Assembly: GCA_965208675.1 (NCBI GenBank) | Contig: OZ242351.1 | Coordinates: 96,001-160,000, forward strand | Length of the DNA: 64,000 nucleotides | Direction: 5' to 3' | Origin: Candidatus Poribacteria bacterium | GTDB lineage: Bacteria; Poribacteria; WGA-4E; PCPOR2b | Shown: positions 2,106-20,304 of the stretch, one piece after another | How the letters are laid out: the number at the start of each line of letters is the position of its first letter | How positions within the stretch are numbered: position 1 is the first letter of the stretch | Translations under genes and position numbers: made by a program | Notes under the pieces: model-generated | Databases searched by the model: none | Told to the model about the DNA's origin: nothing | Seen by the model: only the letters and a program-made list of their open reading frames with translations

Positions 2106-4334
2106 ATGACAGAACTACTTGCCAAAAGCGCCCCGCCTGAAACACTGATGAAACACACGGAAAACTGTCTTTCAGTCTGTTTCAGTATGCGGGAAACAAT
2201 GCCGTTTCTCGCGGAGATTTCCGGCGATCCGGATTTTTTCGACCATCTTTTCTATACGGTTGCCCTTCACGATTTCGGCAAGGCAGCAGCCGGGTTTCAG
2301 GAACAACTCAAACCAGCTGCCGCCCCGTGGAACTATCGTCACGAAATTTTATCGGCAGGATTTGTGGCTGGGTTGAATCTGCCGTTGCGAATCAAACAAG
2401 CAATCGGTTTGGCAATTCTGACTCACCACAAAGATATTAAAATATTAAGAGATCGTTATCCATGCTTCCCCCCACACAATCCAGGTTATGCAACATGGAA
2501 ATCACGAATGGCAGAATTAGAACCGAATTGGGATGCCTTGATGCGAATTCAAGAGCAGATCGATCTCTGGCGTCCAGACGAGAATTGTCACTTTATACCT
2601 CTGCCCTCGCTTGGTGGATTAATTAACGGGTATAAGGATTTCCTTGTGCCATATCTTAACGATTTTGAGGACGGCGAATTGACGGCGTTGCATGGTCGTT
2701 ACGGTATGTTGTTGCGCGGTTGTATGATTGCGTGTGACCATCTCGCATCAGCAGGAAAAACTAAGATTTACCGTGCGCTTGACAATCTGGATGGGCATCT
2801 TCGCATCCAAATTGAGCAAAAGGGGCGGGTGTTTCGAGGTTGGGATGCATTTCAAGATGCCGCCGCAACGACATCGGGGCACCTATTGCTCTCCGCGCCA
2901 ACTGGTTCGGGCAAGACCGAAGCCGCTATGCTTTGGTCCGATGCAAATGAGAGCGAATCGCATGGACAGCGTGTATTTTATGTTTTGCCCTACACCGCAA
3001 GCATCAATGCGATGTATGACCGCCTGCTCAATCTCGTGTCCAAAGACCGCATCGGATTGTTGCACGGCAAGGCAAATTACTTCCTCTATAGGTCAATGGT
3101 GGATAAAGAATACACCCCAGACGAAGCGAGAGCAGAAACCCGGGAAACGCAAAACCTGACACAAAAAATCTACCGGCCGTACAAAGTATTGACACCGTTC
3201 CAACTGCTCAAATCCTTTTTCGGTACGCGCGGCTTTGAGATGCAATTCGCGGAGATGGCGGGTGGCTTGTTCATCTTCGACGAAATCCACGCCTATGACC
3301 CGCATACTACCGCACTCATTTTGACAATGGTTAAGAAACTTTGTCAAGATTACGGCTCGCAATTCTGCATTATGACTGCAACAATGCCGAAGTTCCTCAA
3401 GGAGATGTTTGTAGATGCTACCGGTGAGACTGCTAAAGTTGAGATGTCTCCTGAGAAACGAGATCAATTCACACGCCACCACGTTCGCTTGTTTGAAGGT
3501 GGAATCATTGACTCAATTCCAAAGATTACCGAACGATTGGAAGGTGGGAAACGGGTATTGGTTGTTTGTAATACAGTCAAAAAGGCACAGACAGTTTTTG
3601 AGCGATTATCCCCACGTGCGACCAATCCGCAGCTTCTCCACAGTCGTTTTATCCTCCGAGACCGAGAGCGAATCGAGAGAGAGCTGGCAGATGCGGACTT
3701 GCTTGTTGGGACACAAGCCGTTGAAGTCTCACTTGACATTGACTTTGATGTGCTGTTTACCGAGCCCGCACCAATTGATGCCCTGATACAGCGATTCGGA
3801 CGGGTAAACCGTAGAGGCGAAAAAGAAATTTGTGATGTGTGCATCTGTCGCGAAGGTGGTGATAACGACAAATACATCTACTCCATAGACCGTATAAAAC
3901 GGACGCTTGATGCTTTCGCCGAAGTTAATATTTTGTATGAATCGAAAGTTCAATATCTGATTAATACGGTTTACGGCGAGAGCTACGATTCAAAGGAACA
4001 GGAAATGTTTGATAACGCTAGAGCGATTTTCAATCAACACGTGCGAAACATCGTTCCGTTCATTGAGGACACATCAGCGCACGAGGAGTTTACCGGCCTC
4101 TTCAAAAGCATAGAAGTAGTTCCATCAGTTTATGAAGATGAATTTCTGATACATATCAACGCAAAGCAGTTTTACGAGGCAATGGCGTACGTCACCTCAA
4201 TTTCTGATGGACAATTCGCGCGACTCCACAAAGAAGGTCAGTTATACAAACAACAGGGGCAATGGTTCGTGCGAGTCCGCTACGATTCTGAGCGTGGGTT
4301 GGCACTTGATGAGTTGGCGGAAAATGTGTTGTGA
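2106..4334 (+). CDS. cas3: Cas3 HD nuclease / SF2 helicase fusion
   Basis: HDFGK HD motif, APTGSGKT, DEIH, MTAT, QRFGRVNR. Confidence 0.97.
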   Translation: MTELLAKSAPPETLMKHTENCLSVCFSMRETMPFLAEISGDPDFFDHLFYTVALHDFGKAAAGFQEQLKPAAAPWNYRHEILSAGFVAGLNLPLRIKQAIGLAILTHHKDIKILRDRYPCFPPHNPGYATWKSRMAELEPNWDALMRIQEQIDLWRPDENCHFIPLPSLGGLINGYKDFLVPYLNDFEDGELTALHGRYGMLLRGCMIACDHLASAGKTKIYRALDNLDGHLRIQIEQKGRVFRGWDAFQDAAATTSGHLLLSAPTGSGKTEAAMLWSDANESESHGQRVFYVLPYTASINAMYDRLLNLVSKDRIGLLHGKANYFLYRSMVDKEYTPDEARAETRETQNLTQKIYRPYKVLTPFQLLKSFFGTRGFEMQFAEMAGGLFIFDEIHAYDPHTTALILTMVKKLCQDYGSQFCIMTATMPKFLKEMFVDATGETAKVEMSPEKRDQFTRHHVRLFEGGIIDSIPKITERLEGGKRVLVVCNTVKKAQTVFERLSPRATNPQLLHSRFILRDRERIERELADADLLVGTQAVEVSLDIDFDVLFTEPAPIDALIQRFGRVNRRGEKEICDVCICREGGDNDKYIYSIDRIKRTLDAFAEVNILYESKVQYLINTVYGESYDSKEQEMFDNARAIFNQHVRNIVPFIEDTSAHEEFTGLFKSIEVVPSVYEDEFLIHINAKQFYEAMAYVTSISDGQFARLHKEGQLYKQQGQWFVRVRYDSERGLALDELAENVL

Positions 4335-4533: not shown

Positions 4534-5043
4534 ATGCAAAACCCAAATGAACCCCGTATCACCGGCACAACAATCGGCTACCTCTACGTCTGTCCGCGCG
4601 AACTCTGGTTCTTTCAGAACCATATCGAAATGGAACACACCTCAGACCTCGTTTCTATGGGGAAACTCCTACACGAGGAGAGTTATCCTCGTGAAAAACG
4701 GAAGGAACGCCCGATTGATGATCGCAACCTCATTGACTTCATTGACAAAGACGGCATCCTGCACGACGTAAAGTCAAGTCCATCAGTGCAGAAGGCTCAT
4801 GAAATGCAAATCCTCTACTATCTCTATCTCCTCAAACAGAAAGGGTTGCCAAATCGGAAAGGGGTGATTAACTACCCGCGCCAACGGCGGACCGTTGAGG
4901 TCGAGTTGACCCCTGAGAAAGAGTGCGAAGTCGAGGAAGCGATCGGAGAGGTCAAGAGAATATCCGACCTGCCTACACCTCCAGATGTGGAGTTCATGAA
5001 TATCTGTAAATCGTGTAGCTATATGGAATTGTGTTGGAGTTGA
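4534..5043 (+). CDS. cas4: Cas4 RecB-like nuclease with Fe-S cluster
   Basis: CPRELWF, IDFID, HDVKSS, QILYYLY, CKSCSYMELC. Confidence 0.95.
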   Translation: MQNPNEPRITGTTIGYLYVCPRELWFFQNHIEMEHTSDLVSMGKLLHEESYPREKRKERPIDDRNLIDFIDKDGILHDVKSSPSVQKAHEMQILYYLYLLKQKGLPNRKGVINYPRQRRTVEVELTPEKECEVEEAIGEVKRISDLPTPPDVEFMNICKSCSYMELCWS

Positions 5044-5134: not shown

Positions 5135-6130
5135 ATGTCTCGTAACTACTACATTAGCCAGTCAGGCAGATTGCGCCGAAAAGACAACACCATCTATCTC
5201 GAAAAAGAAGACGGGTCCCGGGTGCCGATTCCGATTGAAGATGTGGATGCATTCTACCTCTATGGCGAACTGGACATGAACACCCGCATTCTCAACTTCA
5301 TGGCGCAGAAGCATGTACCTATTCATGTGTTCAACTACTACGGCTACTATTCCGGCACGTACTATCCGCGGGAATACCTGAACTCTGGATTCCTCACCGT
5401 CAAGCAGGTGCAGCACTACGAACGAAAATCGAAACGTCTGCCAATTGCCCGCGAATTTGTTTCAGCGGCAGTGGCGAATATCCTGCGAAACCTCCGTTAC
5501 CGTGCGAATCGCGACAGCGATTGTTCCGAGCAACTGAGCATTATTGAATCCATCGAAGCCGAGATTCCGCACGCGCAGACTGTTGACCAACTGATGGGAT
5601 ATGAGGGAAACGTCCGCGAAACCTACTACCGCGCCTTCAACGCCATTATCAATCTACAAACTCCTTTTGACAAACGTGTCCGCCAACCGCCCGATAACCC
5701 CATCAACGCCACGATCTCATTCGGAAATTCGCTAATGTATACCGCCTGCCTGACAGAGATCTACCGAACGCAGCTGAATCCGACGATTAGTTTCCTGCAT
5801 CAACCGGGGGAACGCCGATTCTCCCTGAGCCTCGATCTGGCAGAAATCTTCAAACCGATAATTGTTGACCGAGTGCTATTCCGATTGTTCAATCGAGGGC
5901 AACTCAAAGAATCCAAGCACTTTGAAACCGAGACTGGAGGCTGCTATCTAAACGAGAGCGGAAGGCGCCTATTTCTCCAAGCCTTCGACGAACAGCTCAA
6001 GCAGACAATCGACCATCGGAAATTAAATCGGAAAGTCTCCTACCAACGTTTGATCCGCCTTGAATGCTACAAGTTGATTAAGCATCTTACAGGAATGGAG
6101 ACCTATCAGGCATTTCGGGCATGGTGGTAG
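5135..6130 (+). CDS. cas1: Cas1, type I-B
   Basis: RRKDNTI, GYEGNVR, PPDNPINATISFGNSLMY, LDLAEIFKP, C-terminal RAWW. Confidence 0.97.
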   Translation: MSRNYYISQSGRLRRKDNTIYLEKEDGSRVPIPIEDVDAFYLYGELDMNTRILNFMAQKHVPIHVFNYYGYYSGTYYPREYLNSGFLTVKQVQHYERKSKRLPIAREFVSAAVANILRNLRYRANRDSDCSEQLSIIESIEAEIPHAQTVDQLMGYEGNVRETYYRAFNAIINLQTPFDKRVRQPPDNPINATISFGNSLMYTACLTEIYRTQLNPTISFLHQPGERRFSLSLDLAEIFKPIIVDRVLFRLFNRGQLKESKHFETETGGCYLNESGRRLFLQAFDEQLKQTIDHRKLNRKVSYQRLIRLECYKLIKHLTGMETYQAFRAWW

Positions 6131-6146
6131 GACGAGAAAATCCCTT

Positions 6147-6213
6147 CGTAGGGGCGGGGTTCCCCCGCCCGTAGAATTTGGGGGCAACCGTAGGTAGGGC
6201 TTCCTAGCCCGAC
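6147..6213. repeat. Two GTAG-type REP-like palindromes
   Basis: CGTAGGGGCGGGGTTCCCCCGCCC and CGTAGGTAGGGCTTCCTAGCCCGAC. Confidence 0.65.
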
Positions 6214-6236
6214 TGAATCAATAAACCGTAGTTTTT

Positions 6237-6264
6237 TTACGCATTACTCATTACTCATTACGCA
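6237..6264. repeat. Heptamer tandem repeat TTAC(G/T)CA x4
   Basis: TTACGCA TTACTCA TTACTCA TTACGCA. Confidence 0.7.
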
Positions 6265-6332
6265 TTTTACATACTATACTTTCTTTTTCAATTCACCTCA
6301 TTTATCCATTACTAGCGTAGGAGACCGCCACA

Positions 6333-6596
6333 TTGTATGTCATTATCGTTTACGACATTGACGTAAAGCGGGTTGCGAAAGTCTGCAAATACCTGCGTCA
6401 ACACCTCAACTGGGTACAAAACTCCGTCTTTGAAGGCGAACTGACAAAGGCTCAATATGCACGAGTGGAATCAGGACTTTTGGGAATCATTGATGAAAAT
6501 CAAGATTCGGTGCTCGTTTACCAAATGCGTAATGAGAAATGGATGGACAAGCAGGTTATCGGCATCGAAAAAAATCCGGTCACAAATCTCCTATGA
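6333..6596 (+). CDS. cas2: Cas2 (TTG start)
   Basis: YVIIVYDI, WVQNSVFEG, DSVLVY; GGAG RBS upstream. Confidence 0.96.
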   Translation: MYVIIVYDIDVKRVAKVCKYLRQHLNWVQNSVFEGELTKAQYARVESGLLGIIDENQDSVLVYQMRNEKWMDKQVIGIEKNPVTNLL

Positions 6597-6876
6597 CCGA
6601 ACACTACAGCAAAAGTAGTAGGCATACGCCGTATGCCGTAAAGAGTGTTTCTGAATGGATCGTATGTCGTCAACCCCAGTTTCTGCGGCAATTTTCCTAA
6701 TTCATAAAGCACCATTTTTTCCCGACTATTTTGGATTTGAATCGCAACCACGTGATGTCGTCAACCCCCCGTCTGTTTTGCACAATCGAACGTTGACGAC
6801 TTTTGAGAGCACGGAGAATTTACTCTTTGCAGTCGTGGCGCGGGTTTGCTTTGTTATTTTTCGCCGATTTTGCGGA
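6597..6876 (+). promoter_or_regulatory. CRISPR leader with repeated GTCGTCAAC motifs
   Basis: Between cas2 and the first repeat; ATGTCGTCAACCCC at 6664-6677 and 6755-6768, inverted GTTGACGAC at 6792-6800. Confidence 0.8.
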
Positions 6877-9800
6877 CTTCTAATCGAACCATACTGGAAT
6901 TGAAACGTAAGCTCCTCTTCGGTTCGGTAAGGTTAGGAAAAACTTCTAATCGAACCATACTGGAATTGAAACATTTCCCTTTACTTTTAGCCGAGAGTAT
7001 AGTAGCCTACTTCTAATCGAACCATACTGGAATTGAAACGTTAATCTCTATAATCTCGCCGTATACCTTATTTCCCTTCTAATCGAACCATACTGGAATT
7101 GAAACATTTCCCTTTACTTTTAGCCGAGAGTATAGTAGCCTATCTTCTAATCGAACCATACTGGAATTGAAACTTTACTATCGGCCCTATTCCTAGAGTT
7201 ATATCGTAAGACTTCTAATCGAACCATACTGGAATTGAAACACGTATACGATTACTCCTACTCGTACGGCGAATATACTTCTAATCGAACCATACTGGAA
7301 TTGAAACAGCGACGGCGTTTCGATTTCGCCGTTCTCGTATAACTTCTAATCGAACCATACTGGAATTGAAACTATTCCGTAACGACGGTATAAGTTACCT
7401 CGCCGACTTCTAATCGAACCATACTGGAATTGAAACTTAGTAGACGGCGCGCCCCGTTCGAGTTCTAAGGTTTCCTTCTAATCGAACCATACTGGAATTG
7501 AAACTCGGTTAATTCCTTTTCGGTTAGAGGTTAGGAAACGCCTTCTAATCGAACCATACTGGAATTGAAACTTAAGATTCTTACCGCCATCGGATTTTAG
7601 GTTATTCTTCTAATCGAACCATACTGGAATTGAAACGTATAACCTTATAAACTATATCCCCGTTTTCCGTCCTTCTTCTAATCGAACCATACTGGAATTG
7701 AAACACGCTCCGCCGATATAACCGCCGTAACTATAACTATCTTCTAATCGAACCATACTGGAATTGAAACTATGAAGAGTGGGGAGACGACTGAGATGTT
7801 TAGGAAACTTCTAATCGAACCATACTGGAATTGAAACGATATAACCTCTCTATAAGTTTAACGTTACCGCTATCCTTCTAATCGAACCATACTGGAATTG
7901 AAACTCGGGTGCTCTATCATATAATCCTTTAATCTCTAATCTTCTAATCGAACCATACTGGAATTGAAACATTATTTTACCGATGAAATAACCTTAGATT
8001 CCTATATACTTCTAATCGAACCATACTGGAATTGAAACGGTTTAGGAAAGTTAGAACACAGTAGCACGGGTTTACCTTCTAATCGAACCATACTGGAATT
8101 GAAACTTATTAACCGCTTCGCGTATTCCGTTATCGAATAGACTTCTAATCGAACCATACTGGAATTGAAACACATCCGTTTGTATGGCTAAAGCGAAACG
8201 ATTTTAGCCTTCTAATCGAACCATACTGGAATTGAAACACGCCATTTGCTCATGTGCCGTCTGAATCTTCTTAACCTTCTAATCGAACCATACTGGAATT
8301 GAAACTCCTCTGAGACTAAAGCTCTTGAGACAGCAAACGCCGTCTTCTAATCGAACCATACTGGAATTGAAACAGAGACGTTGCAACCGCTTTCGTTAAA
8401 TCCATTCTGACTTCTAATCGAACCATACTGGAATTGAAACCTTTACAAGGCGGGAATTGTAACAGTGGACGATGTTCTTCTAATCGAACCATACTGGAAT
8501 TGAAACGCAACAAAGCTCTTTTCCATTCCGCAGATTTCATATTCTTCTAATCGAACCATACTGGAATTGAAACTAGAATTATTAAGCAATTCTGGATTAT
8601 CAGATTTATCCTTCTAATCGAACCATACTGGAATTGAAACCCAGCTTTGACTGCGTTATTTGCTGCTCTCAACTTCACTTCTAATCGAACCATACTGGAA
8701 TTGAAACCTTGGATGCGTAAACTATTGATGGCTTCGCTTTTCTTCTAATCGAACCATACTGGAATTGAAACTCATTTCGCCGCGTGCTAGTTGAAAACAC
8801 TCGTCTAAACTTCTAATCGAACCATACTGGAATTGAAACAGATACTTCATTGTGTTACCTCCTTAAAAAAGAGAGCTTCTAATCGAACCATACTGGAATT
8901 GAAACAACTACCGGTGCTGCGCCCACAAGGCTCTCTTTCGCTTCTAATCGAACCATACTGGAATTGAAACAACGAAATTATACATCTTCCAATTGCGCTC
9001 GATATAATCTTCTAATCGAACCATACTGGAATTGAAACGGTGCTTACGACGAGGCGGAGCAGCGGCGCGTCAGCCTTCTAATCGAACCATACTGGAATTG
9101 AAACAGATCTGCGTGTACTGTGACTGTCGCCTTCATCGTAATCTTCTAATCGAACCATACTGGAATTGAAACCAGGCTCCTTAGCAGCTCTTGGATTTGC
9201 GCTTGGACTTCTAATCGAACCATACTGGAATTGAAACCCACCTTATTGCCAGTTGTTTCAATCGCCTCCTTAACACTTCTAATCGAACCATACTGGAATT
9301 GAAACTTTTGTGGTGCGGTTAGAACTGTCCGAGCCAGATGCCTTCTAATCGAACCATACTGGAATTGAAACAGGCTTTCGCCTCGTCTAGTAAATCGTTG
9401 CGTTGTTCCTTCTAATCGAACCATACTGGAATTGAAACCAGGTTGTCAAGCGTTTTTCCGAATTATTTTGCTATCCTTCTAATCGAACCATACTGGAATT
9501 GAAACAAAGTTGCGGGCGTTTGTCTTGGCGCGTCTCGACTTGCTTCTAATCGAACCATACTGGAATTGAAACTAAGCTATTAACATCGCCGTCTGCGATA
9601 TAATCGTGCCTTCTAATCGAACCATACTGGAATTGAAACAGGCTTTCGCCTCGTCTAGTAAATCGTTGCGTTGTTCCTTCTAATCGAACCATACTGGAAT
9701 TGAAACAAAGTTGCGGGCGTTTGTCTTGGCGCGTCTCGACTTGCTTCTAATCGAACCATACTGGAATTGAAACTAATGTGTGCGCTCAAGGTGTAACAGA

Positions 9801-10041
9801 ATTTTTACTTCTAATCGAACCATACTGGAATTGAAACATTCCTTCGGATAGATTTCATACGCGACGCCGGCAAACTTCTAATCGAACCATACTGGAATTG
9901 AAACTTGGCAACCAGCCTTCAGGATATTTGAAAAGCACCATCCTTCTAATCGAACCATACTGGAATTGAAACATTAGCATTACGAATGTGGAAGGAGGTA
10001 GACGGTCGTCCCTTTTAATCGAACCTTACGTTGAATTTCGG
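6877..10041 (+). CRISPR. CRISPR array: 47 identical repeats CTTCTAATCGAACCATACTGGAATTGAAAC plus a degenerate terminal repeat (from 10012); 47 spacers of 34-39 nt
   Basis: Repeats read directly (first 6877-6906, last perfect 9943-9972); the 3' ATTGAAAC handle, the leader side and the degenerate trailer all indicate + orientation. Confidence 0.99.
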
Positions 10042-10226
10042 AATTCCGCCCCAAGTGCAACCTCGCCTGCCTGCTCCCGTATTCCCAATCGTCAATCCCA
10101 ATCCTCCATTTACCCGCAAACCAAATCAATCAAAAGTCCGCCAAAAATAACTTTATATATGTTAAGTATCACTTTCCTGCCGTGGCGACAAATATACCGC
10201 ATCTGAAATATCCAAAAAATTAAACC

Positions 10227-10441
10227 TGTTAAATCTGTTAAATTTTGTAAACTTTTGTAAACCATTTTGCTGCTACTATCCTCGAAAATTCAACGGCGGG
10301 CAGTAAAGAAACCCCATTGCTGTTAATGGTTAGTAACGACAAATACGGGGATTTTACTTTGACAAAATACGTACCCTCAATGTATAATTGCACCCAAAGC
10401 AAAACATGTTAAATCTGTTAAATTTTGTAAACTTTTGTAAA
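10227..10441 (+). repeat. 35-bp perfect direct repeat (10227-10261 and 10407-10441) built from TGT(T)AAA subunits
   Basis: TGTTAAATCTGTTAAATTTTGTAAACTTTTGTAAA twice, exactly 180 bp apart. Confidence 0.95.
10359..10388 (+). promoter_or_regulatory. Consensus sigma70 promoter of the HTH gene
   Basis: TTGACA (10359-10364), 18 nt, TATAAT (10383-10388). Confidence 0.85.
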
Positions 10442-10456
10442 GGAATTGGTTAAATT

Positions 10457-11008
10457 ATGCCTACTAAAACCGAACTGAAAAAACGTGAAGCGATTTCTCT
10501 GATGTTAACGGGAAAGACTACCAAGGAAGTTGCAAAGGCGGTTGGAGTGACCCGCCAAACAATTTGGAAGTGGAAGCAGCAGGAAGATTTTAATCATGAT
10601 ATTGTCGAGGCTGGCGAGAGCATTCTCTCGGAACACACATTGGCAGTTTCAAAACTCGTTGATGAAGCCATCACCGTCATGTCCGAACTGCTTAAAAGCG
10701 AAGACGAAAGCATAAAGATTAAAGCCGCGACGAGCGTGCTGAACGCCGCCAAGAATTGGGGTGCGGATCGCCCAAAGGCCCCGGGGCACTCAAGAGCTGA
10801 AGATGAAATCCACAAAGAACGAATTGAAGCCATAATGCACATTGAGCGGAAGAGGAAAATATTTGAAGAGCAAGGCGGCAAACCCGAAGATTTCTTGATG
10901 TGGTCTTTATTTGGGGACAGCAAAGAGAACGGCAATGGCACAGAGAACTCAACATCAACCGCTTCCGAAAAAACAGAAAAACCGGAATCTGCAAAAACGC
11001 CTGATTGA
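10457..11008 (+). CDS. Helix-turn-helix protein (phage/terminase-small-subunit-like N-terminal HTH with helical C-terminus)
   Basis: TTKEVAKAVGVTRQTIWKWK HTH; AAGGA RBS; LLKSEDESIKIKAA helical segment. Confidence 0.8.
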   Translation: MPTKTELKKREAISLMLTGKTTKEVAKAVGVTRQTIWKWKQQEDFNHDIVEAGESILSEHTLAVSKLVDEAITVMSELLKSEDESIKIKAATSVLNAAKNWGADRPKAPGHSRAEDEIHKERIEAIMHIERKRKIFEEQGGKPEDFLMWSLFGDSKENGNGTENSTSTASEKTEKPESAKTPD

Positions 11009-11076
11009 TGAACGCCGGAACCACCAATCTACCAGATGCCCGCCAAAAATCATTAATGGGGGAAAAACTATTGCCT

Positions 11077-11835
11077 ATGAAAAGCGACCTTAAAGCAGCA
11101 ATTGATCACTTGACCGTTTACGGATACTGCATTCTGGAAGATCGCATTCCCGAGGACATGGCGTTAAGCATGGCGGATCGCTTCCTCGAATTGCACGCTG
11201 ACCCGATGTGCCAGCCCTACAACACGGGGGACGAGCATTATCAGACGCTGTTTGGCATGACGAATTTCGACGACCGAGTCTGGACCTGCGCTAGTCATCC
11301 GGACACCGTTGCAATCGCGGAGCATTTTCTAGGGCAAAACTGCCGCATTCCCGATGCGTGTTCCAAGCCCACGTGGCCCGGTGCGCCGCATGGCGGGCTG
11401 CACGTTGATTCCGCGCACTACTTCAAGGTCGTGCCCAATGTGCCTTGGTTGATCAACAGCATTTGGATGTTAACGGAGTTCACCGAGGAGAACGGCGCAA
11501 CCGGCGTCGTGCCGCTGAGCCACCGCACGCGCCTGCATGAACCTCCGCCGGACATTACTCCAAACAGCCCGCTAGTGAAACCCATCACCGGACGCCCGGG
11601 CACGGTGATGATGTGGCACGGCGGGCTATTCCACATGTCGCGCGCTAACACCACATCCAACGAAATTCGTGTCGGTCTCAACATAGGTTACTGCCCGCGC
11701 TGGTTCAATACCTGGGTAGAGGGCGGACATCAGCCGGTGTGGCACGAGACATACGAGCGAATGCCGTCTGAAATGAAGCGGCTGTGCCTCGGAAAATTGG
11801 GCCGCGACCGTGCAGAACTGTACGAACGGTTTTAA
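11077..11835 (+). CDS. Phytanoyl-CoA dioxygenase (PhyH) family Fe(II)/2OG oxygenase
   Basis: GYCILED, LHVD, ENGATGVVPLSH, distal WHGGLFH; start taken at ATG 11077. Confidence 0.88.
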   Translation: MKSDLKAAIDHLTVYGYCILEDRIPEDMALSMADRFLELHADPMCQPYNTGDEHYQTLFGMTNFDDRVWTCASHPDTVAIAEHFLGQNCRIPDACSKPTWPGAPHGGLHVDSAHYFKVVPNVPWLINSIWMLTEFTEENGATGVVPLSHRTRLHEPPPDITPNSPLVKPITGRPGTVMMWHGGLFHMSRANTTSNEIRVGLNIGYCPRWFNTWVEGGHQPVWHETYERMPSEMKRLCLGKLGRDRAELYERF

Positions 11836-11898
11836 ATAACTATTTGGCTCTTAAATCCTACGAGCGCCGCAAAGGTGGGGTTGTGTGTACCGGCGCCG

Positions 11899-12672
11899 TC
11901 ATGAAAAGATGTCGCGAAAGCGAGTCATCGCCTCCATATCGTCGCCTTTCGGGAACGCTTCCAAACCGATGACCCCGTCATAGTTCAACTCGCGCAAGAC
12001 GCGGCCAATTCCCGGATAATTCATCTCACCGGTGCCCGGCTCGTGGCGCCCGGGCACATCCGCTACGTGCAAATTGCCGATGTAATCGTAATAGTCCCGG
12101 ACAGTCTGGATGACATTGCCCTGTTGGAGCTGCATGTGATACAAATCGCAAAGCAGTTTGATGCGCGGACTGCCAACTTCGTCAAGAAGATTCGTGACAT
12201 CCGCGGTATTAGGGAAGGGATATCCGGCGTGATCAACCTTGATGTTTAGTTGCTCCACATGGTACACGGTATCGTGTTTTTCGGCAAGTTCAGCCACGCG
12301 GCACAGTGTCTTGTAGGCGGTAATCCACATCGTAGCCGGATGCGCCGCAATGGGGTGCACAACATTGCCGGCTTCGTCCAATTCCCCGGTCAATAGGCAC
12401 AGATTCCGGCAGTCCAGCCGCCCGGCAAGGTCGAGGCATTGCTTAACCCCATCCATGAACAGCTCGACGCCGTCGGGGTGTACCATACTCCCGCCCATAC
12501 ATCCCGGTATGGCGTTGACTTCGATATTGGGATCAGCGGCGATTCGGTCAATCGCACTCTCTTCCGAACCCCAAAAATCAACAAGAAACCCGGCTTGGGC
12601 AATCTCTCTAACTCGCTGTTCAAAGGGAATATTTTGCAGAACCGTGCCTGCGGACACAGATAAACGATACAT
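11899..12672 (-). CDS. Hydroxypyruvate isomerase-like TIM barrel (AP endonuclease 2 fold)
   Basis: DLYHMQ, HVADVPGRHEPGTGEMNY, GLEAF; AAGGAG RBS before ATG 12672. Confidence 0.88.
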   Translation of the reverse strand: MYRLSVSAGTVLQNIPFEQRVREIAQAGFLVDFWGSEESAIDRIAADPNIEVNAIPGCMGGSMVHPDGVELFMDGVKQCLDLAGRLDCRNLCLLTGELDEAGNVVHPIAAHPATMWITAYKTLCRVAELAEKHDTVYHVEQLNIKVDHAGYPFPNTADVTNLLDEVGSPRIKLLCDLYHMQLQQGNVIQTVRDYYDYIGNLHVADVPGRHEPGTGEMNYPGIGRVLRELNYDGVIGLEAFPKGDDMEAMTRFRDIFS

Positions 12673-12899
12673 GGACAACTCCTTTTGGGCTTTGGGAGAT
12701 TTATCGGCTGCTAACAACATCGCCGTGAAAAACACTGAGATTGATGGCACACCGAATCAAAGCATTATACCACGTTTTTTGGGAATACTGTCAACCGATT
12801 TTAGCGCGCCGCGCTGCTGCTGAATGTACATTGTGATTCACCGGTATAATGTGGTATCATTCTAGGGCGAGTTGACATTTTTTTGGAGTTGTCCGAAAC

Positions 12900-13002
12900 C
12901 GTAAGGATGGGTAGTCACTGCCCGTTGGCCAATCACGGGAAGCGTATTCACGACCATTAAGAATTGATTGGGAACAAAGGGTTGGGCAGCCCAACCCCTA
13001 CG
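12900..13002. repeat. Degenerate REP doublet
   Basis: CGTAAGGATGGGTAGTCACTGCCCGT ... GGGTTGGGCAGCCCAACCCCTACG. Confidence 0.6.
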
Positions 13003-13214
13003 AATGGTCATGTGGCTGTACGCAGTCCTTGATAGTTCCGATGTGATGAAATGTCAACAGAACTTAATCGGACCCCAAAATTTTGGTCCCGAGATACGAC
13101 AGCGCTTCAACCGATTCACTGGAATTCATCTATCTCATTTTCGGTAGAAGACAACCGCTTTTCCGCATGTAATATTCGTACCGGATTCCGCCCGATTACG
13201 CAAGGAGGCAAAGG

Positions 13215-15014
13215 ATGCAACCCGATTCTGCCGAAGAAACCATACAACGGCTAACATTCAGTCTGTCAGAGCTTGAGCAGCTTGGCGAAGCAATTCTTTC
13301 TGGCGGGGGAAACTTTAATGTGTCAAGTAAAACTTACCTGCGGGTGATTCTTGGAACATTAGGCGTAACTAAGGGCGCAATTTTTTCTTTCGATACGGCG
13401 GAAAGCCATCTCACTATTGAAGCGGAGATTAACCTCAATAATGGTTCGCTAATAATTCCAGTGGCTTCGGACGAAATTTCCATCATACGCGGTTCCTCAA
13501 TTATTGAAATTTCTCAGCCTCCCCACCTGCTGGAACCGTTGTTTAACAGCATTCAGCCGCAACTGCAAAACCTTGACGCTCGACTCTGGGCGCCGCTAAA
13601 AATCCGTGACGAACTTCTGGGAGTCATCAGTCTAGGTCCGTTTCTGTCCGGAATGAGAATTGAATCGTGGGCGCGCGGCGTGTTAAGTGTATTAGCCAAC
13701 CAAACCTCGATTGCAATGGCATATTCACGTTTGATGGATGAGATGCGCGCCGACAAGTTTCACCTCTTTCTCCTTTCTGATATAACCACCCAGATATACA
13801 AACAGTTGAACACGGAACGTCTGGAAGAGGAAATCATAAGCCATGCGGTAACGCTGTTAGACGCCAACTCGGGTTACCTATTCCTCACCGATCCGTTTAG
13901 CCGCCAACTCGAAATGAAGAGCAGCCTTAACCTCAATCCGACAATCGACTCCGACCTGACGGCAAATTCCAGCGAAATGGGTGAATTGTCGGTCCATGCC
14001 ATGGTTAGCGATGTTGCCGCAGACGGGAGAACATTGGTGTGCAATGACGATAAAACCGCCGCGCCTTTCGGCAGGGCGAACCTGATAGCCGCTCCGATTT
14101 TTGGGCGTGAGGAAAATTTGGGGGTTCTCGTTGTATGCGACAAAGAGGATCGGGGCGGCATTCCGCGTAAACTGACTTCTGAGGACAGAATTCTGCTTGA
14201 AGCCTTTTCAAACCAGGCGGGGGTAATTGTCGAAAATGCGCGCCTTTATCAAGAGGCGCTTGAACGTCGGCGGATGCAAGCAGAAATGGAGGAAGCGGAA
14301 AAAATTCAGAGAAACCTCCTCCCGGATGAGCCGCCTGAAATCGCCGGTTATGAACTTGCGGGGATATCTGTACCGCGGGGCGGGGTTGGCGGCGATTACT
14401 ACGATTACATTCGTGAACCCAATGAACGTTGGGGTCTCGCGATTGCCGATGTCTCTGGAAAAGGCATGCAGGCCGCACTGCTTATGGCGACGCTGCGAGC
14501 CGGTTTGCTTTCAGAAGTGGCGCGGCGAAAAGATTTGCCGAGCATGGCAATCACTCTGAACTCTCTGCTTTATGAGAGCAGTACACTCGGCAAATTCGCA
14601 ACCTTCTTCTATGCACAGTTGAATCCGGAAACCGGTATGTTGACTACAATCAATGCAGGGCATAACTACCCCCTGGTTATTCGAAGTAATGGAAGTTTAG
14701 AGCGGTTAAAGATCGGTGGGGTTATGTTAGGCATGTTTCCGGATGATATGATCAATCACGTTTCGGCGTATGAGCAGGAGACGATTAAACTTGATCGCGG
14801 CGACATCGTTTTGTTTTATACCGACGGCGTGACCGAAACATTCAACATCAACAATGAGCTATATGGAGAGAAACGGTTGGAACACCTCGCCAGCCAGATT
14901 CATCACCGAGATGCAAAGGAAATTTGCGGCACAGTACATAATGCAGTGTTGGAATTTCAAGGCGAAGCCCAGCAGTTTGACGATTTAACGCTCATGGTGC
15001 TTAAGAAAACGTAA
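13215..15014 (+). CDS. GAF-GAF-PP2C (SpoIIE/RsbU-like) phosphatase, paralogue 1
   Basis: GGDYYD, ADVSGKG, NAGH, YTDGVTE, DDLT; two GAF-like regions. Confidence 0.93.
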   Translation: MQPDSAEETIQRLTFSLSELEQLGEAILSGGGNFNVSSKTYLRVILGTLGVTKGAIFSFDTAESHLTIEAEINLNNGSLIIPVASDEISIIRGSSIIEISQPPHLLEPLFNSIQPQLQNLDARLWAPLKIRDELLGVISLGPFLSGMRIESWARGVLSVLANQTSIAMAYSRLMDEMRADKFHLFLLSDITTQIYKQLNTERLEEEIISHAVTLLDANSGYLFLTDPFSRQLEMKSSLNLNPTIDSDLTANSSEMGELSVHAMVSDVAADGRTLVCNDDKTAAPFGRANLIAAPIFGREENLGVLVVCDKEDRGGIPRKLTSEDRILLEAFSNQAGVIVENARLYQEALERRRMQAEMEEAEKIQRNLLPDEPPEIAGYELAGISVPRGGVGGDYYDYIREPNERWGLAIADVSGKGMQAALLMATLRAGLLSEVARRKDLPSMAITLNSLLYESSTLGKFATFFYAQLNPETGMLTTINAGHNYPLVIRSNGSLERLKIGGVMLGMFPDDMINHVSAYEQETIKLDRGDIVLFYTDGVTETFNINNELYGEKRLEHLASQIHHRDAKEICGTVHNAVLEFQGEAQQFDDLTLMVLKKT

Positions 15015-15068
15015 TCGCCGTGTAACTGCGCCATTTGGCGCCATGCGCATGATAAGGAAGTTGAGAAC

Positions 15069-15097
15069 TTGACAAAACGATGTATATCAATTAAAAT
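15069..15097 (+). promoter_or_regulatory. Sigma70-like promoter upstream of the STAS gene
   Basis: TTGACA, 17 nt, TAAAAT. Confidence 0.65.
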
Positions 15098-15231
15098 AGT
15101 GTAAGCCAACGTAGAATAACAATCGTCAAGTGATTTGAAAATCAACACGGGACAATTAGCGCGTGCGCGACTAACCACCAAAACAGCACAATTTGCCATA
15201 GATTAGGAATTTACTTTAGGAGGAAATTCTA

Positions 15232-15582
15232 TTGAAAATCAATGTTAGCCAACGCGATGATGTCATCATTTTAACGCCGATTGGCAAAATCATTGGTCCG
15301 GCTGTCAGCGATCTCAGAAAGACGATTGATGAACAACTTGCTAACTTTACCGATGCGCCCAAATTTCTAATCAATTTTGCCGACGTTTCGATGCTGGATA
15401 GTTCCGGGCTCGGAACGCTTATGGGGACGCATGTATCTGTTGTGCGCAAAAATGGACGCATTGCCGTCATAAATGTTGGTGCGAACATCAAGAACCTTAT
15501 AGTTAGAAGCCGATTAATCAGCGTCTTCGAGCATTTTGACAGTGAAGACGAAGCCATCGCATCGCTTACATCGGACGGATAA
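15232..15582 (+). CDS. STAS anti-sigma factor antagonist (RsbV/SpoIIAA-like)
   Basis: MLDSSGLG phospho-serine motif; AGGAGG RBS, TTG start. Confidence 0.92.
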   Translation: MKINVSQRDDVIILTPIGKIIGPAVSDLRKTIDEQLANFTDAPKFLINFADVSMLDSSGLGTLMGTHVSVVRKNGRIAVINVGANIKNLIVRSRLISVFEHFDSEDEAIASLTSDG

Positions 15583-15707
15583 CTGCCCTCATGGGCGGCG
15601 ATGAATAGACAGATTGAAATTTTCGGCAACTCAGAGGAAGTCTAAGAAGGATAAAAACTAACTGCTTTTGCACATCCAATCTGCCTAAATAGAATGGAGA
15701 TGCTAAG

Positions 15708-17519
15708 ATGCAGTCTGCTTCTGCTGAAGAAACCATTCAACGACTAGTCCTCAATCTGTCTGAACTCGAACATCTCGGTGAGGCAATTGTTTCCGGCCAG
15801 GGCAACTTTAGTGCGTCGAGTCAAGCCTATCTACGGATAGTCCTTGAAACGTTGGGTGTGGCAAACGGGGCAATTTTACGCTTCCATCCGAATGCTAACG
15901 AACTTACCATCGAATCGTCAATCAATGTCGATGATGATTCACTCGTGATTTCGGTGCATCCCGGTGAGATTGCCGCCATGATTCAGTTTCCGGTTCTCGA
16001 TCTGTCACGCCCGCCGCTTGTCTTGGAGCCGTTTTTTGATGCTATTCAACCTCAGTTGAAGCTACTTGGCGCCCATCTATGGGCTCCATTAAAAATTGGC
16101 GAGGAATGTTTTGGCGTTATCAGTTTAGGTGCATCTCCCACCCGCATCAAAATGGCATCATGGAGCAGGAAACTTGTGAATGTGCTTGCCGACTATGTCT
16201 CAAGGCAGATTGCACATTCGCGGGCGCTGGAAGAGATGAAAACTGCCAAGTTTCAGCTCTTTCTGCTTTCCGATATCGCCGCACAGATGGGCAAGTTGTT
16301 GGATACGGCGCACCTTGAGAGTGAAATAGTGCACCACGCTGTCAGTCTCTTTGACGCACGCGGCGGTTGTTTACTGCTTATGGATTCAATGAGCCAACGG
16401 CTCGAGATGAAAAGCAGCTTTGTTATGGAGGCAGAATCCAATCCTGAATGGGAAGACCTTTCGATTTCACTTCAAGGCAATGGAGAAGTTCATCCCGCGG
16501 TTTCCCTGCTCCGCGGAGTCGCGGCGCAAGGTAAAACGCTCATTCGCAACCGCGAAAAAGAAGCGGAGTTTTTCGGCGGAAAAAATCTCATGGTGGTGCC
16601 GATTTTTGGACGTGAGATTCTGGGCGTATTGGTTGTTTATGATAAGGAAGAGCAGCACGGAGTTACGGCAGACTTTACGCAACGAGATGGGATTTTGTTG
16701 GAAGCCTTCGCCAATCAGGCAGGGGTCGTCATAGAAAATGCGCGGCTGTATCAAGAAGCTAGAGAACGCCGCCGGCTACAAACAGAAATTGAGGAAGCGT
16801 CAAAAATACAGAAAAATCTCATCCCCGCCACGCCGCCGGAAATCCCCGGTTACGAGGTCGTCGGATTGAGTGTTCCCCACCACGATGAAGTTGGCGGAGA
16901 TTATTACGATTATATTGAAGAACCAAATGGATCGTGGGGTTTTGCGGTTGCTGATGTTTGTGGAAAAGGCATGCAAGCCGCGCTGCTTATGGCGATGCTT
17001 CGGATGGGACTGCGTGCAGAGGTAGCTAGACACAAAGATTTGCGGTCAATGGCGGCAGCGCTCAATGCGCTGCTTTATGAAGGGAGTACCGCGGACACCT
17101 ATGCTACCCTTGTTTACGCGAGGTTGGATCCGGCACGGGGGTTGCTCACTTCTATCAGCGCGGGGCATAACCTCGCGATGGTTGTCCGTCGCGACGGCAA
17201 AATTGAACGACTGGAGAAGGGTGGTCTGGTTATAGGAATGTATCCTGATGACATGCTTCGTCAAATTGTAGAATATGAACAGGAAACAACACTACTGTCG
17301 CGTGGAGACACGGTTCTGCTTTACACTGATGGAATTACCGACACCCTTAACATCCACGATGAGATGTTTGGAGAAGCGCGCTTAGTTGAACTGGTAGTGG
17401 AGCGGCGCAATGCAACCGCCAACGATATTTGCGCGGAAATTTACAACGCTGTACAAAATTTCCAAGGGGAAGCGAATCCATTCGACGATTTAACGCTGAT
17501 GGTTCTCAAGAGAAAGTGA
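15708..17519 (+). CDS. GAF-GAF-PP2C phosphatase, paralogue 2
   Basis: Collinear with 13215-15014 (MQxxSAEETIQRL start); GGDYYD, ADVCGKG, YTDG, DDLT. Confidence 0.93.
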   Translation: MQSASAEETIQRLVLNLSELEHLGEAIVSGQGNFSASSQAYLRIVLETLGVANGAILRFHPNANELTIESSINVDDDSLVISVHPGEIAAMIQFPVLDLSRPPLVLEPFFDAIQPQLKLLGAHLWAPLKIGEECFGVISLGASPTRIKMASWSRKLVNVLADYVSRQIAHSRALEEMKTAKFQLFLLSDIAAQMGKLLDTAHLESEIVHHAVSLFDARGGCLLLMDSMSQRLEMKSSFVMEAESNPEWEDLSISLQGNGEVHPAVSLLRGVAAQGKTLIRNREKEAEFFGGKNLMVVPIFGREILGVLVVYDKEEQHGVTADFTQRDGILLEAFANQAGVVIENARLYQEARERRRLQTEIEEASKIQKNLIPATPPEIPGYEVVGLSVPHHDEVGGDYYDYIEEPNGSWGFAVADVCGKGMQAALLMAMLRMGLRAEVARHKDLRSMAAALNALLYEGSTADTYATLVYARLDPARGLLTSISAGHNLAMVVRRDGKIERLEKGGLVIGMYPDDMLRQIVEYEQETTLLSRGDTVLLYTDGITDTLNIHDEMFGEARLVELVVERRNATANDICAEIYNAVQNFQGEANPFDDLTLMVLKRK

Positions 17520-17603
17520 CCATCAGCAGTCGGAGGCTCATTCACGGGCTGATTCTAAATTGACCGCATTTGAAATTGCGTCGTTCGCAATGCGGAGGGC
17601 ACT

Positions 17604-19841
17604 ATGGATAGAGATGTTTCTAAACGCATGCAGAAGTCTATTATTGCGTATTCTGCATTAGGAATTTGCGCGATCGGCTTGATCGTTTCATTCATCAGCA
17701 TCTCCTCGTTTTATCAAAAACTCAAGGAATTAGCGGAAAATAATCTCGTCCAGACGGTAGATGCCCGAGGTATAGCCGTTGATGAATATCTGTCTCGTTT
17801 GAAAGATATCGCCCAACTAATTACTAGCCAAACCGAAGCGCGCGAAAAACTTGAAGCATACAGCAACGGGGAGGTGAAGCGGGAAGAATTGACCCGTTTT
17901 ACCGGAATCACATTGAATAATGCCATGCAAACATCAGAGCTAGTGGACGGCATCGTTCGGATCGATGCAAATGGTGAATCCATCGTTCGTGTCGGGTTGC
18001 AGATACCGGAAAACGAGTGGCCCTCATACGCTGGAAGATTCAGACGCATGATTGTTCACGGTCCAGTGTCCTTGTATGGCGAACCCTACGTAATTGTCAG
18101 CGCGCCTATTTTTGGGGTAGAAGCAGAACGTATCGGTACTGACTTGGTACTGTTCAAAATGTCTGCCTTGCAGAAACTAGTAAAAGATTACGCCGGACTG
18201 GGAGAGACCGGAGAAATTATTCTGGGGCGGTACAAAACTCGCGGAATTGAAATATTCTTCCCCATGCGGGGGAGTGAAAGCACACTCGTTGAAGATGTCC
18301 CCAAGGATTCCTCGATTGGGATCGCGCTCAAAGCTGCCGCGGGAGGAAGTTTTGGCGTGATCGGTCCTGATAATTTTCCAAATAGCCTGGTCGTTATTGC
18401 CTATAGTCCCGTTAATGATACAGAATGGGGTATTCTTGCAAAGATGGATAAGGATGAGCACTTATCGGAAATCAATCGCAGAATCCTTGAAATCGGCAGC
18501 GTCATTATAGGTCTCACCTTAGTCGGCACCTGCGGAATGGTGCTGCTGCTTCGTCCGCTTACAGGCAGGATTATCATCCATACTGATGAGTTGGAGACCG
18601 AGATTGAAGAAAAGACCGTGGATTTGCAAAATGAAATTGAGGAACGCAAAAAGACCGAAGCGGCGCTCGTTCGATTAGCCTCTTTGCCCGAACAGAGTCC
18701 CGATCCTGTTATCGAAACCGACCTTAAAGGAAAAGTGAACTATCTCAACCCGGCTGCACAACTACAATTTGCGAGTTTGGATGAGATTGGACTTGAACAC
18801 CCGACACTGGAGGGATTGCAGCCAATCATAGCCTCATTTCACGGTGATAAAGAGGAATCCTTCACCCGTGAGATTGATCTTGGCAGTCTCGTATACGTGC
18901 AGAAAATCTGCCATGTTTCGGACAGTCACCTAATCCGAATCTATATGACCGACATTTCAGATCGCAAGTGGGCTGAAGCGGAATTGCAAGGGGCAAAGGA
19001 AGCTGCCGAATATGCCAACCGCGCCAAGAGTGAATTCCTCACAAATATGAGCCATGAACTTCGCACCCCGCTAAACGCCATCATCGGATTTTCAGAGATT
19101 TTGAGAGATGCCATTCTCGGTCCCGTAAACGAAAGTCAGGAAGAGCTGATTCGCGACATACACACCAGCGGGCACCACCTTTTGGATATGATTAACGGGA
19201 TTTTGGATTTGGCAAAAATCGAAGCGGGAAAAATGGATTTACAGCTGGAGATGTTTTCCGTCGAGATGGCGATGGCAGAGGTGAATGCAATCGTTAATGC
19301 AATCGCAAACAAAAAACAGATTGAACCCGCGCTTGAATTCGATCAAGATGTCTCAATAGAAGCGGACAAGGTCAAATTCAAACAAATTCTCTACAATTTG
19401 CTTTCAAACGCTATCAAATTCACCGGTGAACGCGGTCAAGTTACCACGAGATTTAGCGTCTCTGAAAATGAGCTGGTGACTCAAGTGACCGATACTGGAG
19501 TAGGCATGTCGCCGGAGGATCAAGCAAAGTTGTTTCAACCATTCATGCAACTTGATGCCTCCAAGTCCCGCGAATATAGCGGAAGCGGATTGGGACTCGC
19601 CTTAACCAAAAGATTGGTGGAAATTCATGGCGGGACAATTTCGGTTGAGAGTGAAAAAGGAAAGGGGAGCACCTTTCAGTTTACACTCCCTTTGAGTCAA
19701 ATGTCAAAGTCACCGCAGCCTGCAACGGTCGAATTTTCTGCATCAATTCACAGTGATGACACAGTTCACGCCCAAGATGAGAACAGAACAGCGGCCCCCG
19801 CATCGGAGTCTGTTGAATTTTCAGATAACGAAGAGCGTTAA
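17604..19841 (+). CDS. Membrane sensor histidine kinase (Cache-like, PAS, HisKA, HATPase)
   Basis: Two TM segments; [11 protein letters not shown]-box, [21 protein letters not shown]. Confidence 0.94.
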
Positions 19842-19922
19842 TACAAATTTGATACCGATAATTTGATTGCCGGACCTGCAAGCCATGTTCGGAAAACCAG
19901 ATGGGAAGGAGAACTCCTGCTC

Positions 19923-20300
19923 ATGAGTGCCAAGCGCGTATTAGTGGTCGAAGATGTTGAAATGAATCGTAAGCTCGTGCGAATCGTATTGACGACAAAG
20001 GGTTATGAAGTGATTGAAGCCACGCATGCGGAAGAGGCACTCGAAATCCTGCAAACCGAGGTGCCCGATTTGATTCTGATGGACATCGCTCTGCCCGGAA
20101 TAAGCGGAGAAGAATTGACGCGCCAGATAAAAGCTGATCCGCGGTGGTGTCATGTGCCAATCATCGCTTTAACTGCGGCGGCAATGAAAGGCGATCGAGA
20201 ACAGTTTCTCAGTGCGGGCTGTAACGATTATATCAGCAAGCCGATTGATACGCACGCCCTTGGAGATATAATAGATCGGTATCTCTTAAAGGAATTCTAG
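19923..20300 (+). CDS. Single-domain response regulator (DivK-like)
   Basis: VLVVED, ILMDIALPG, ALTA, YISKP. Confidence 0.92.
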   Translation: MSAKRVLVVEDVEMNRKLVRIVLTTKGYEVIEATHAEEALEILQTEVPDLILMDIALPGISGEELTRQIKADPRWCHVPIIALTAAAMKGDREQFLSAGCNDYISKPIDTHALGDIIDRYLLKEF

Positions 20301-20304
20301 TGTA

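Follow-up and report, generated by a model that had tools for sequence, protein, structure and literature searches.

The stretch of DNA analysed here (the window, 64,000 nt) covers bases 96001-160000 of a contig of 4.89 Mb with 49% guanine plus cytosine (GC), and it contains a CRISPR array whose newest spacers almost lack the dinucleotides CA and TG. This depletion is confirmed as real and lies far beyond chance. With belief and doubt evenly balanced, we favour the reading that the newest spacers record one foreign DNA family, or a part of it of a few kb, which was truly purged of the CA:TG step. The host is assigned to Candidatus Poribacteria, a phylum of sponge symbionts, through the relatives of its Cas1, which is 93-95% identical to Cas1 of the nearest Candidatus Poribacteria genomes.

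The array (6877-9972, plus strand) is composed of 47 identical 30-nt repeats (CTTCTAATCGAACCATACTGGAATTGAAAC, without a mismatch) and 46 spacers of 34-38 nt. By the rule of Cas1-Cas2 integration the leader-proximal spacer is the newest; spacer 1 (6907-6942) lies beside the putative leader and is therefore taken as the newest. Spacers 1-13 (6907-7740, 474 nt) contain a single CA, in spacer 11, and no TG. By scripted count they hold 64 TA (odds ratio 1.71) and 42 CG (odds ratio 2.08), with 6, 6, 7 and 7 TA in spacers 2, 3, 5 and 6. Spacer 14 (7771-7807) is ordinary with four TG, and so is spacer 18 (8039-8075) with three CA. Between them, spacer 15 (7838-7874) has no CA or TG and seven TA, and spacers 16 (7905-7940; two CA/TG, five TA) and 17 (7971-8008; one TG, seven TA) are possibly from the same source. 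Spacer 19 (8106-8141), again free of both steps, is the oldest of the unusual kind. Together, spacers 1-13, 15, 16, 17 and 19 hold four CA/TG in 621 nt, and the ordinary spacers 20-46 (8172-9942) hold 48 CA and 67 TG, that is 115 in 991 nt, with counts of 3, 6, 4, 4, 5, 5, 3 and 7 in spacers 20-27.

A preliminary description, made from the letters alone, had reported the near-absence of CA/TG in spacers 1-13, the counts in spacers 15-17, 19 and 20-27 and the TA counts, and our scripted recount returned every one of these numbers. The change-point test which it had proposed was done as a Poisson scan. The best break lies after spacer 13 (log-likelihood gain 36.7) and the second after spacer 19 (33.5), and the observed gain was reached by 0 of 5000 permutations. 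As for background rates, 152 of the 60,329 36-mers elsewhere in the window (0.25%) are CA/TG-free, and a cyanophage of 41% GC has 0.15%, with 13 such tracts in 50 kb. Ten of 4041 spacers (0.25%) from arrays of the same CRISPR family in relatives were CA/TG-free, never adjacent to each other, and 86 of the 4041 held at most one such step. These comparison spacers came from arrays beside Cas1 relatives; seven repeat groups flagged as odd (L034, L044, L045, L047, L048, L050) were left out, and false arrays resembling repetitive extragenic palindromic (REP) elements (L007, L044, L049) give 12 of the 4041.

We considered where such a bias could sit. A process within the array is ruled out, as all 47 repeats keep one CA and two TG each and the leader is ordinary. 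A general host filter at the time of capture is ruled out by the ordinary spacers 14 and 18 inside the block. A general property of the acquisition proteins is also ruled out, as the arrays beside 93-95% identical Cas1 proteins have no such block and carry CA/TG-free spacers only singly and scattered. The host genome has normal odds ratios of CA (1.03) and TG (1.07), and its longest CA/TG-free run is 85 nt. Spacers 1-19 had no match in the host genome or in 1.44 Mb of further loci when TA and CG were opened to any pyrimidine-purine pair and up to four mismatches were allowed; self DNA is ruled out as the spacer source by this relaxed search and by the normal CA/TG of the host. Because the bias lies outside the array, the host in general, the Cas1 family and self DNA, its cause lies with one particular spacer source, which we take to be foreign.

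An artefact of assembly or base calling, or mutation of the array in place, is hardly credible to us. The genome is a metagenome-assembled chromosome, and the only other data with the array, one public sequencing run (X1), may be from the same sample. Contigs of this run hold spacers 4, 6, 11, 13 and 17 with their flanking repeats in identical form; since the run may be the sample of origin, it gives no independent support. An error or in-place change sits badly with the identical repeats that keep CA and TG, with the normal spacers 14 and 18 within the block, with the normal rest of the genome, and with the letter-for-letter agreement of the five spacer-bearing contig pieces of the run. The preliminary description had ascribed the block to a phage or plasmid of extreme composition. 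The part that stands is that the bias belongs to the source of the spacers, and not to chance, to the array or to the acquisition machinery in general; the extension to a whole genome exceeds the about 620 nt that are seen, which may come from one small region.

The unusual spacers show signs of repeated sampling. Spacer 4 equals spacer 2 plus one T, and the two are best read as two captures of one protospacer with a 1-nt difference in length. Spacers 1 and 10, both without CA/TG, are homologues whose alignment has 23 matches, 2 mismatches and a single gap of 3 nt. It scores 17, and no unrelated pair scores above 12. The two resemble diverged variants of one intergenic site that bears a ribosome binding site. 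Together, these two pairs suggest a single source family. One exact coincidence in about 15 draws implies, as a rough estimate, a pool of roughly 100 usable sites, and a pool of this size would mean that the source is a small replicon, that only a few kb (first-entering or primed) were sampled, or that there are hot spots. Shared 8- to 10-mers were also found in spacers 1, 10, 14 and 18 (TTAGGAAA), and ATAACC is shared by spacers 11-13, 15 and 17; by an estimate from the alignment scores these are within chance.

In spacer 10 (7505-7541) two 13-nt stretches are identical to other Poribacteria sequences, one lying in a REP-like hairpin (GCGAGGTTAGGAAACCTCGC) and the other just before the start of cas2. 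The matching stretches are neighbours in the related loci L025 and L058 but on opposite strands (L025 9917-9937, 10999-11020, 11065-11086 and 11129-11141). The hairpin GCGAGGTTAGGAAACCTCGC itself was not found in the host genome, with 2 and 3 loose matches at up to three mismatches. These matches may be chance, or a hint of an invader circulating among Poribacteria.

Forbidding CA and TG alone lifts the CG and TA steps, whose odds ratios are 1.89 and 1.22 in CA/TG-free 36-mers of the host. The TA excess with kept CG, which the preliminary description had also pointed out, was correctly counted, but in large part it follows from the missing CA/TG and is thus not independent evidence. For the composition test we used the 13 unique, strictly CA/TG-free spacers (1, 2, 3, 5-10, 12, 13, 15 and 19), without spacer 4, which duplicates spacer 2, and without the CA/TG-holding spacers 11, 16 and 17. 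Their fraction of pyrimidine-purine (YR) steps is 0.243 and their TA fraction 0.143; the YR fraction of ordinary DNA overall is about 0.245. The corresponding values of CA/TG-free tracts are 0.199 and 0.075 in the host genome (2258 tracts), 0.185 and 0.097 in related loci (729 tracts), and 0.174 and 0.116 in cyanophage syn9 (41% GC, 13 tracts). Random 13-tract sets reached the YR fraction of the spacers in at most 0.045% of 20,000 draws (P<=0.00045) and their TA fraction in at most 0.15% (P<=0.0015), and GC-matched subsets did no better. Chance tracts shed CA/TG mostly through fewer YR steps overall. The spacers look like ordinary DNA with CA/TG replaced, not like chance CA/TG-free tracts.

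This result bears on a filter acting on ordinary DNA, in which only the rare CA/TG-free tracts would become or stay spacers. For example, a bulky modification of CA/TG might block capture or Cascade binding, or a nuclease might cut at these steps and only uncut fragments of at least 36 bp would be captured. CA/TG-free tracts occur in any genome (at the rates given above for the host and the 41% GC phage), conditioning alone raises CG (odds ratio 1.9) and TA (1.2), a small eligible pool would explain the repeat capture in spacers 2 and 4 and the homologous sites in spacers 1 and 10, and no odd proteome is needed. We nevertheless judge the filter unlikely, as chance tracts have fewer YR steps (0.17-0.20 against 0.243) and less TA (0.075-0.116 against 0.143; P<=0.0015), and as its general form, acting on all DNA in the host, is excluded by spacers 14 and 18. 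By our own estimate, the pool of about 100 sites given by one exact duplicate in 15 draws would need a very large genome once a protospacer adjacent motif (PAM) is required. The type III-A partner of the system targets RNA, so that modification of DNA would not force the choice of spacers at interference. A leaky filter should make spacers with one CA/TG about eight times commoner than spacers with none, and the observed numbers are 2 to 14.

Replacement models were calculated with the 4041 spacers of relatives as typical invader DNA (TA 0.057, CG 0.057, CA+TG 0.134, GC 0.45), and the observed values are TA 0.143, CG 0.100 and GC 0.424. Conversion of all CA/TG to TA, which needs C-to-T changes only, predicts TA 0.190 +/- 0.014, CG 0.057 +/- 0.011 and GC 0.32, and the observed values lie outside (P<=0.0004). 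Replacement by 65% TA and 35% CG predicts TA 0.144, CG 0.104 and GC 0.41 and fits well. The four implied changes (CA to TA or CG, TG to TA or CG) are all transitions, and a silent fix is possible at four of six positions in genes (NTG to NTA, NCA to NCG, and with a hyphen for the codon border NNC-A to NNT-A and NNT-G to NNC-G). That both TA and CG rise agrees with silent transitions, the reading frames in 36-nt pieces being uncertain. Such a mix is expected from selection against the step, and equally from deamination of C or A in 5'-CA-3' on either strand.

Near-total loss of CpA/TpG with a high TpA/ApT ratio is also seen in fungal repeat-induced point mutation (RIP), for which the index thresholds are TpA/ApT above 0.89 and (CpA+TpG)/(ApC+GpT) below 1.03. 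The spacers pass both, with 64/35 = 1.83 and 1/54 = 0.02; the second index is passed by any CA/TG-free sequence. RIP, however, makes C-to-T changes only, lowers GC and wrecks reading frames, and its target is a genomic repeat, whereas here CG is gained (0.100, vs 0.057 in typical invader spacers), GC is 42%, the host is a bacterium and the target an invader. The RIP-like signature of CpA-directed C-to-T mutation put forward in the preliminary description is therefore not supported in that form, as a C-to-T-only process acting on typical invader DNA would give the values predicted above, with more TA, less CG and lower GC; the model is marginal only for a source of about 56-64% GC.

A related explanation, quite unlikely in our judgement, is hypermutation: a RIP-like, CA-directed cytosine deaminase encoded by the host or the element would have converted a GC-rich invader on both strands over rounds of replication. 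The spacers would then have been taken from damaged, possibly defective DNA, and they could still serve the type III-A system, which tolerates mismatches, against the parent in its unmutated form. The extreme RIP indices and the presence of a type III-A module suit this explanation; a hand count suggests an excess of NTA codons and of Ile, Val and Tyr in the best frames, and a source of 56-64% GC predicts TA 0.159 and CG 0.099, near the observed values. The same source would leave a GC of 0.465 +/- 0.015, too high against 0.424, and sources of 30-56% GC are rejected on TA and CG (P<=0.01). Single-strand deamination just before capture would, by our own reasoning, remove CA or TG and not both, and a near-complete conversion of two strands would need many cycles. 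The amino-acid make-up (Ala 3.6%, many Ile, Asn, Lys and Tyr), a hand count in uncertain frames, suits an AT-leaning source better than a GC-rich one. We know of no bacterial enzyme with the specificity of a CA-directed deaminase.

The four peptides quoted in the preliminary description proved to be exact minus-strand translations of spacers 3, 7, 8 and 15. Open frames that resemble protein occur in most of the unusual spacers, chiefly on the minus strand, and under translation table 11 no spacer is without an open frame. Three-base periodicity is weak, with P=0.038 in the unusual spacers against P=0.0013 in the older ones. There is weak indication, on this evidence, that the source DNA is at least partly protein-coding. 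The protein-like frames are without Met, His, Gln, Cys and Trp, because CA/TG are missing. As these steps are missing across codon borders too, the cause does not lie at the level of codons or transfer RNA (tRNA), and such a cause was set aside.

Reassignment of stop codons or altered decoding in the invader, allowing CAR-to-TAR drift, is very improbable. Nothing direct favours it: DNA free of CA/TG allows no stop codons other than TAA and TAG, and TA occurs often. Reassignment would explain at most the loss of Gln codons and not that of ATG, CAY, TGY and TGG, and it leaves unexplained both the CA/TG loss at codon positions 2-3 and across codon borders and the gain of CG. Every spacer, besides, has a frame without in-frame TAA or TAG.

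Several other causes were set aside. RNA-derived spacers were dismissed as the locus has no reverse transcriptase, and a dinucleotide preference of the Csm6/Csx1 RNases because the loss of CA together with UG from a single strand would not result from a cause at the RNA level. Modified bases copied by the host as another base were also set aside, and we know of no modified base of this kind. Avoidance of many palindromic restriction sites does not apply, GCGC, GTAC, CTAG and TCGA being present in the spacers. The confidence that our favoured reading and its rivals leave over belongs to causes we did not think of.

In the purged-source reading, the 15 to 17 newest spacers (1-13, 15, 19 and probably 16 and 17) would have been captured by Cas4-Cas1-Cas2 of a composite type III-A/I-B locus from a phage or plasmid of this Poribacteria lineage. 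Transitions would have removed nearly every CA:TG step in the sampled DNA, with TA as the product about two times in three and CG otherwise, and with the overall number of YR steps and the GC of about 42% kept. The depletion, roughly 20-fold or more, would be a property of the source sequence. The most likely cause, given about half of the weight of this reading, would be selection on an invader losing the two-base target of a DNA-level attack, mainly through transitions silent in genes; the other half falls to a CA-directed mutational process acting on a replicating lineage. Some phages and plasmids keep the part of their DNA that enters first free of restriction sites, and CRISPR adaptation is known to draw on the end injected first and on the neighbourhood of a priming site. 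Sampling of this kind would fit the repeated capture from a small CA/TG-free region.

Some points weigh against this reading. The null pools of the composition test are bacterial DNA and one phage, not relatives of the invader, and a TA/CG-rich source combined with a filter would pass the same test. Conversion by C-to-T only is rejected just marginally for a source of 56-64% GC (TA P=0.09, CG P=0.47). In-frame stops (6 of 182 codons, against 9 of 314 in the older spacers, with frames chosen by position-specific base use) do not separate the models; in frame-choice controls, windows with a stop made up 12% for normal, 46% for converted and 19% for CA/TG-free host sequence. We know of no nuclease or deaminase with specificity for the CA dinucleotide. 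No protospacer was found in any collection searched, so that the composition of the invader is seen just in about 620 nt of spacers. Finally, a CA/TG-free replicon could not encode Met, His, Gln, Cys and Trp nor use the starts ATG, GTG and TTG. A wholly CA/TG-free replicon is hence hard to credit, and a region, or a strong but incomplete depletion, is to be expected; four CA/TG in 621 nt leave room for the latter. We put forward only tentatively, and think rather unlikely, the full form of the reading, namely that a sponge symbiont has a phage or plasmid whose DNA lost the CA:TG step, possibly by evading a defence that recognises two base pairs, or by CA-directed deamination of C (to TA) or of A (to CG), and that for several kb or more its genes make do with hardly any codons for Met, His, Gln, Cys and Trp.

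The invader was searched for in several collections. The array part 6877-8171 was compared by blastn with 50,697 phage records, which gave 6 records, all chance matches of 24-30 nt (E>=1), and with 72,556 plasmids, which gave 2 records, one chance match and one similar CRISPR repeat. The latter is in an array on plasmid NZ_AP025322.1 (56768-57257) of Fulvitalea axinellae, whose species name suggests a sponge isolate. In IMG/VR there were 0 matches to the exact spacers 1, 2, 3 and 6, to the consensus of spacers 1 and 10, or to back-translated peptide patterns of spacers 3, 7 and 12, and in the JGI metagenomes 0 matches to the consensus of spacers 1 and 10 or the peptide pattern of spacer 3. The exact repeat CTTCTAATCGAACCATACTGGAATTGAAAC had 0 matches in 185,579 species genomes besides its own genome. 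Among 176 genomes of the Poribacteria phylum, spacer 2 (up to three mismatches) was found only in its own array (1/176). The stretch of spacers 1-19 had matches in 152 of these genomes; the 150 matches listed, with two candidates scored per genome, are long array-to-array alignments through similar repeats, and a spacer-only match may hide among 1959 matches beyond those listed. Contigs of run X1, which contains 0.22 of the sampled words, gave array pieces and repeats of other arrays, with no piece on a spacer alone among 8 of 20 records; this blank is no evidence that the protospacer is absent. Blank searches of this kind, made with no control of older ordinary spacers, say little on whether the invader exists elsewhere. 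A PAM could not be derived; in the host genome the spacers of relatives matched REP-like repeats alone, and their other matches were to duplicates of the arrays they come from.

In the literature, a full-text search returned no account of a virus, plasmid, replicon or spacer set lacking CA/TG in its titles and the opening parts of abstracts. An excerpt of a survey of more than 15,000 bacterial genomes gives TpA as the most depleted dinucleotide (PMC11282364), and by this excerpt a TA-rich, CA/TG-free sequence is the reverse of the usual pattern. An excerpt of a study on Pseudomonas phages describes PAM depletion, that is avoidance of a short motif by the phage (PMC12174588). The avoidance of restriction sites and PAMs is alike in that a mobile element under attack loses a short motif, mostly by silent changes. 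It differs in that the known cases are motifs of 2-6 bp modestly depleted or sites of 4-6 bp fully removed; for a loss of a dinucleotide step of at least 20-fold that forbids five amino acids and the usual starts, no precedent was found in the titles and abstract openings. The depletion of CpG by methylation and deamination in vertebrates and their small DNA viruses is alike in the loss of a dinucleotide through context-dependent transitions, but its direction is opposite: it turns CpG into TpG/CpA, and the spacers have too little TpG/CpA and an excess of CpG and TpA. The CpG depletion there is about 4- to 5-fold, compared with at least 20-fold here.

If the source was truly purged, some force in the symbiosis would act on a target of two base pairs, far shorter than the restriction sites or PAMs known to shape phage genomes, and the same force would limit the choice of amino acids open to the element's genes. 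Whether the cause is a new type of defence or a new type of context-specific DNA editing, it would be of interest to phage biology and genome-editing work. If the bias instead arises in capture or selection, it would point to a new rule by which spacers against a particular invader are chosen. The case also shows that an odd composition can be preserved in CRISPR arrays when the element itself is absent from databases, and the composite III-A/I-B system would be the only witness so far to this element, if the element is real. The question can be tested directly and cheaply on the source metagenome.

All spacers of the array (6907-9942) are pyrimidine-rich on the transcribed strand (T 0.32-0.34 vs A 0.23-0.24), and spacers 1-13 hold 36 CC vs 16 GG; the spacers of relatives are much less T-biased (T 0.282, A 0.268). 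The CRISPR RNAs from pyrimidine-rich spacers would be antisense to purine-rich coding strands, an orientation that would be expected if the type III-A partner selects RNA-targeting spacers. In the old part of the array (9372-9743) spacer 38 equals spacer 42 and spacer 40 equals spacer 43, an internal duplication.

The genes cas8b, cas7, cas5, cas3, cas4, cas1 and cas2 all adjoin the array by Pfam and NCBIfam matches, with cas5 just below the Pfam cut-off, and all lie on the plus strand. The 3' part of cas8b1, encoding the type I-B large subunit, occupies 1-480 (NCBIfam TIGR01908 Cas8b1/Cst1, E 7e-13); the gene starts upstream of the window, its 5' part being at 19098-20000 of the flank locus (L096). 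It is followed by cas7 of the DevR/Csa2 family (483-1472; Pfam PF01905, E 2.5e-10) and by cas5 (1469-2098), a weak match (Pfam PF09704, E 1.3e-4, 22.5 bits vs the cut-off of 23) whose operon position fits. Then come cas3, with HD nuclease and helicase (2106-4334; Pfam Cas3_HD, DEAD, Helicase_C and Cas3-like_C_2), cas4 (4534-5043; PF01930, E 7.5e-51), cas1 (5135-6130; PF01867, E 9.5e-95) and cas2 with a TTG start (6333-6596; PF09827, E 2.3e-24). The putative leader is the 280 nt from cas2 to the first repeat (6597-6876, plus strand), assigned by its position and by the orientation of the repeats, which end in ATTGAAAC; its composition is ordinary. The gap between cas1 and cas2 (6130-6330) is unusually long, about 200 nt; an AT-rich repeat (cattactcattactcattacgcatt) lies in it, along with GC-rich elements that resemble hairpins (gtaggggcggggttcccccgcccgtag).

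Directly upstream of the window (9070-20000 of the flank locus, contig 85070-96000) we found a complete type III-A module followed by cas6, in the order csm6, cas10/csm1, csm2, csm3, csm4, csm5, a TM1812-family CARF protein (csx1-like), a 126-aa open reading frame without family, cas6 and the start of cas8b1. The cas10/csm1 match (TIGR02578, 553 bits) is above the NCBIfam cut-off, and csm4, csm5 and cas6 are likewise upstream in related Poribacteria loci. The locus is, as predicted from its gene content, a composite of type III-A and type I-B with one Cas6, one adaptation module and one array. Known composite III-A + I-B loci with a shared Cas6, one adaptation module and one array have the same order (csm6, cas10, csm2-5, csx1-like CARF, cas6, cas8b1, cas7, cas5, cas3, cas4, cas1, cas2, leader, array); against them the machinery here is nothing unusual, and the oddity is only in the content of the newest spacers. 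A k-mer scan revealed no second CRISPR array in the 4.89-Mb genome. With a single genomic array and both modules at one locus, the array probably serves both the III-A and the I-B system. A dispersed repeat containing CTCTACCCAACCTACAAG, with 25 copies between 660929 and 4419516, came up in the search for arrays, since the spacing of some copies is 45-110 nt, and it was rejected as not being an array.

The genus of the host is represented only by four long-read genomes, and the other three are without this array (best E 0.11-0.81). The Cas1 of the host is 95% identical to that of a genus with larger genomes in the same family. The locus may have been transferred or lost recently, and a new host background could have come at the same time as the switch in spacer content. 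Among the loci compared, L001 has the same array as L086, which is from genome G050.

Downstream of the array, a profile scan of window positions 10.4-44 kb showed ordinary metabolism, transport and signalling genes. At 13215-21483 lies a cluster in which a paralogous pair of GAF-SpoIIE phosphatases (599 and 603 aa) is accompanied by a histidine kinase with a Cache domain and by a fusion of a response regulator with SpoIIE.

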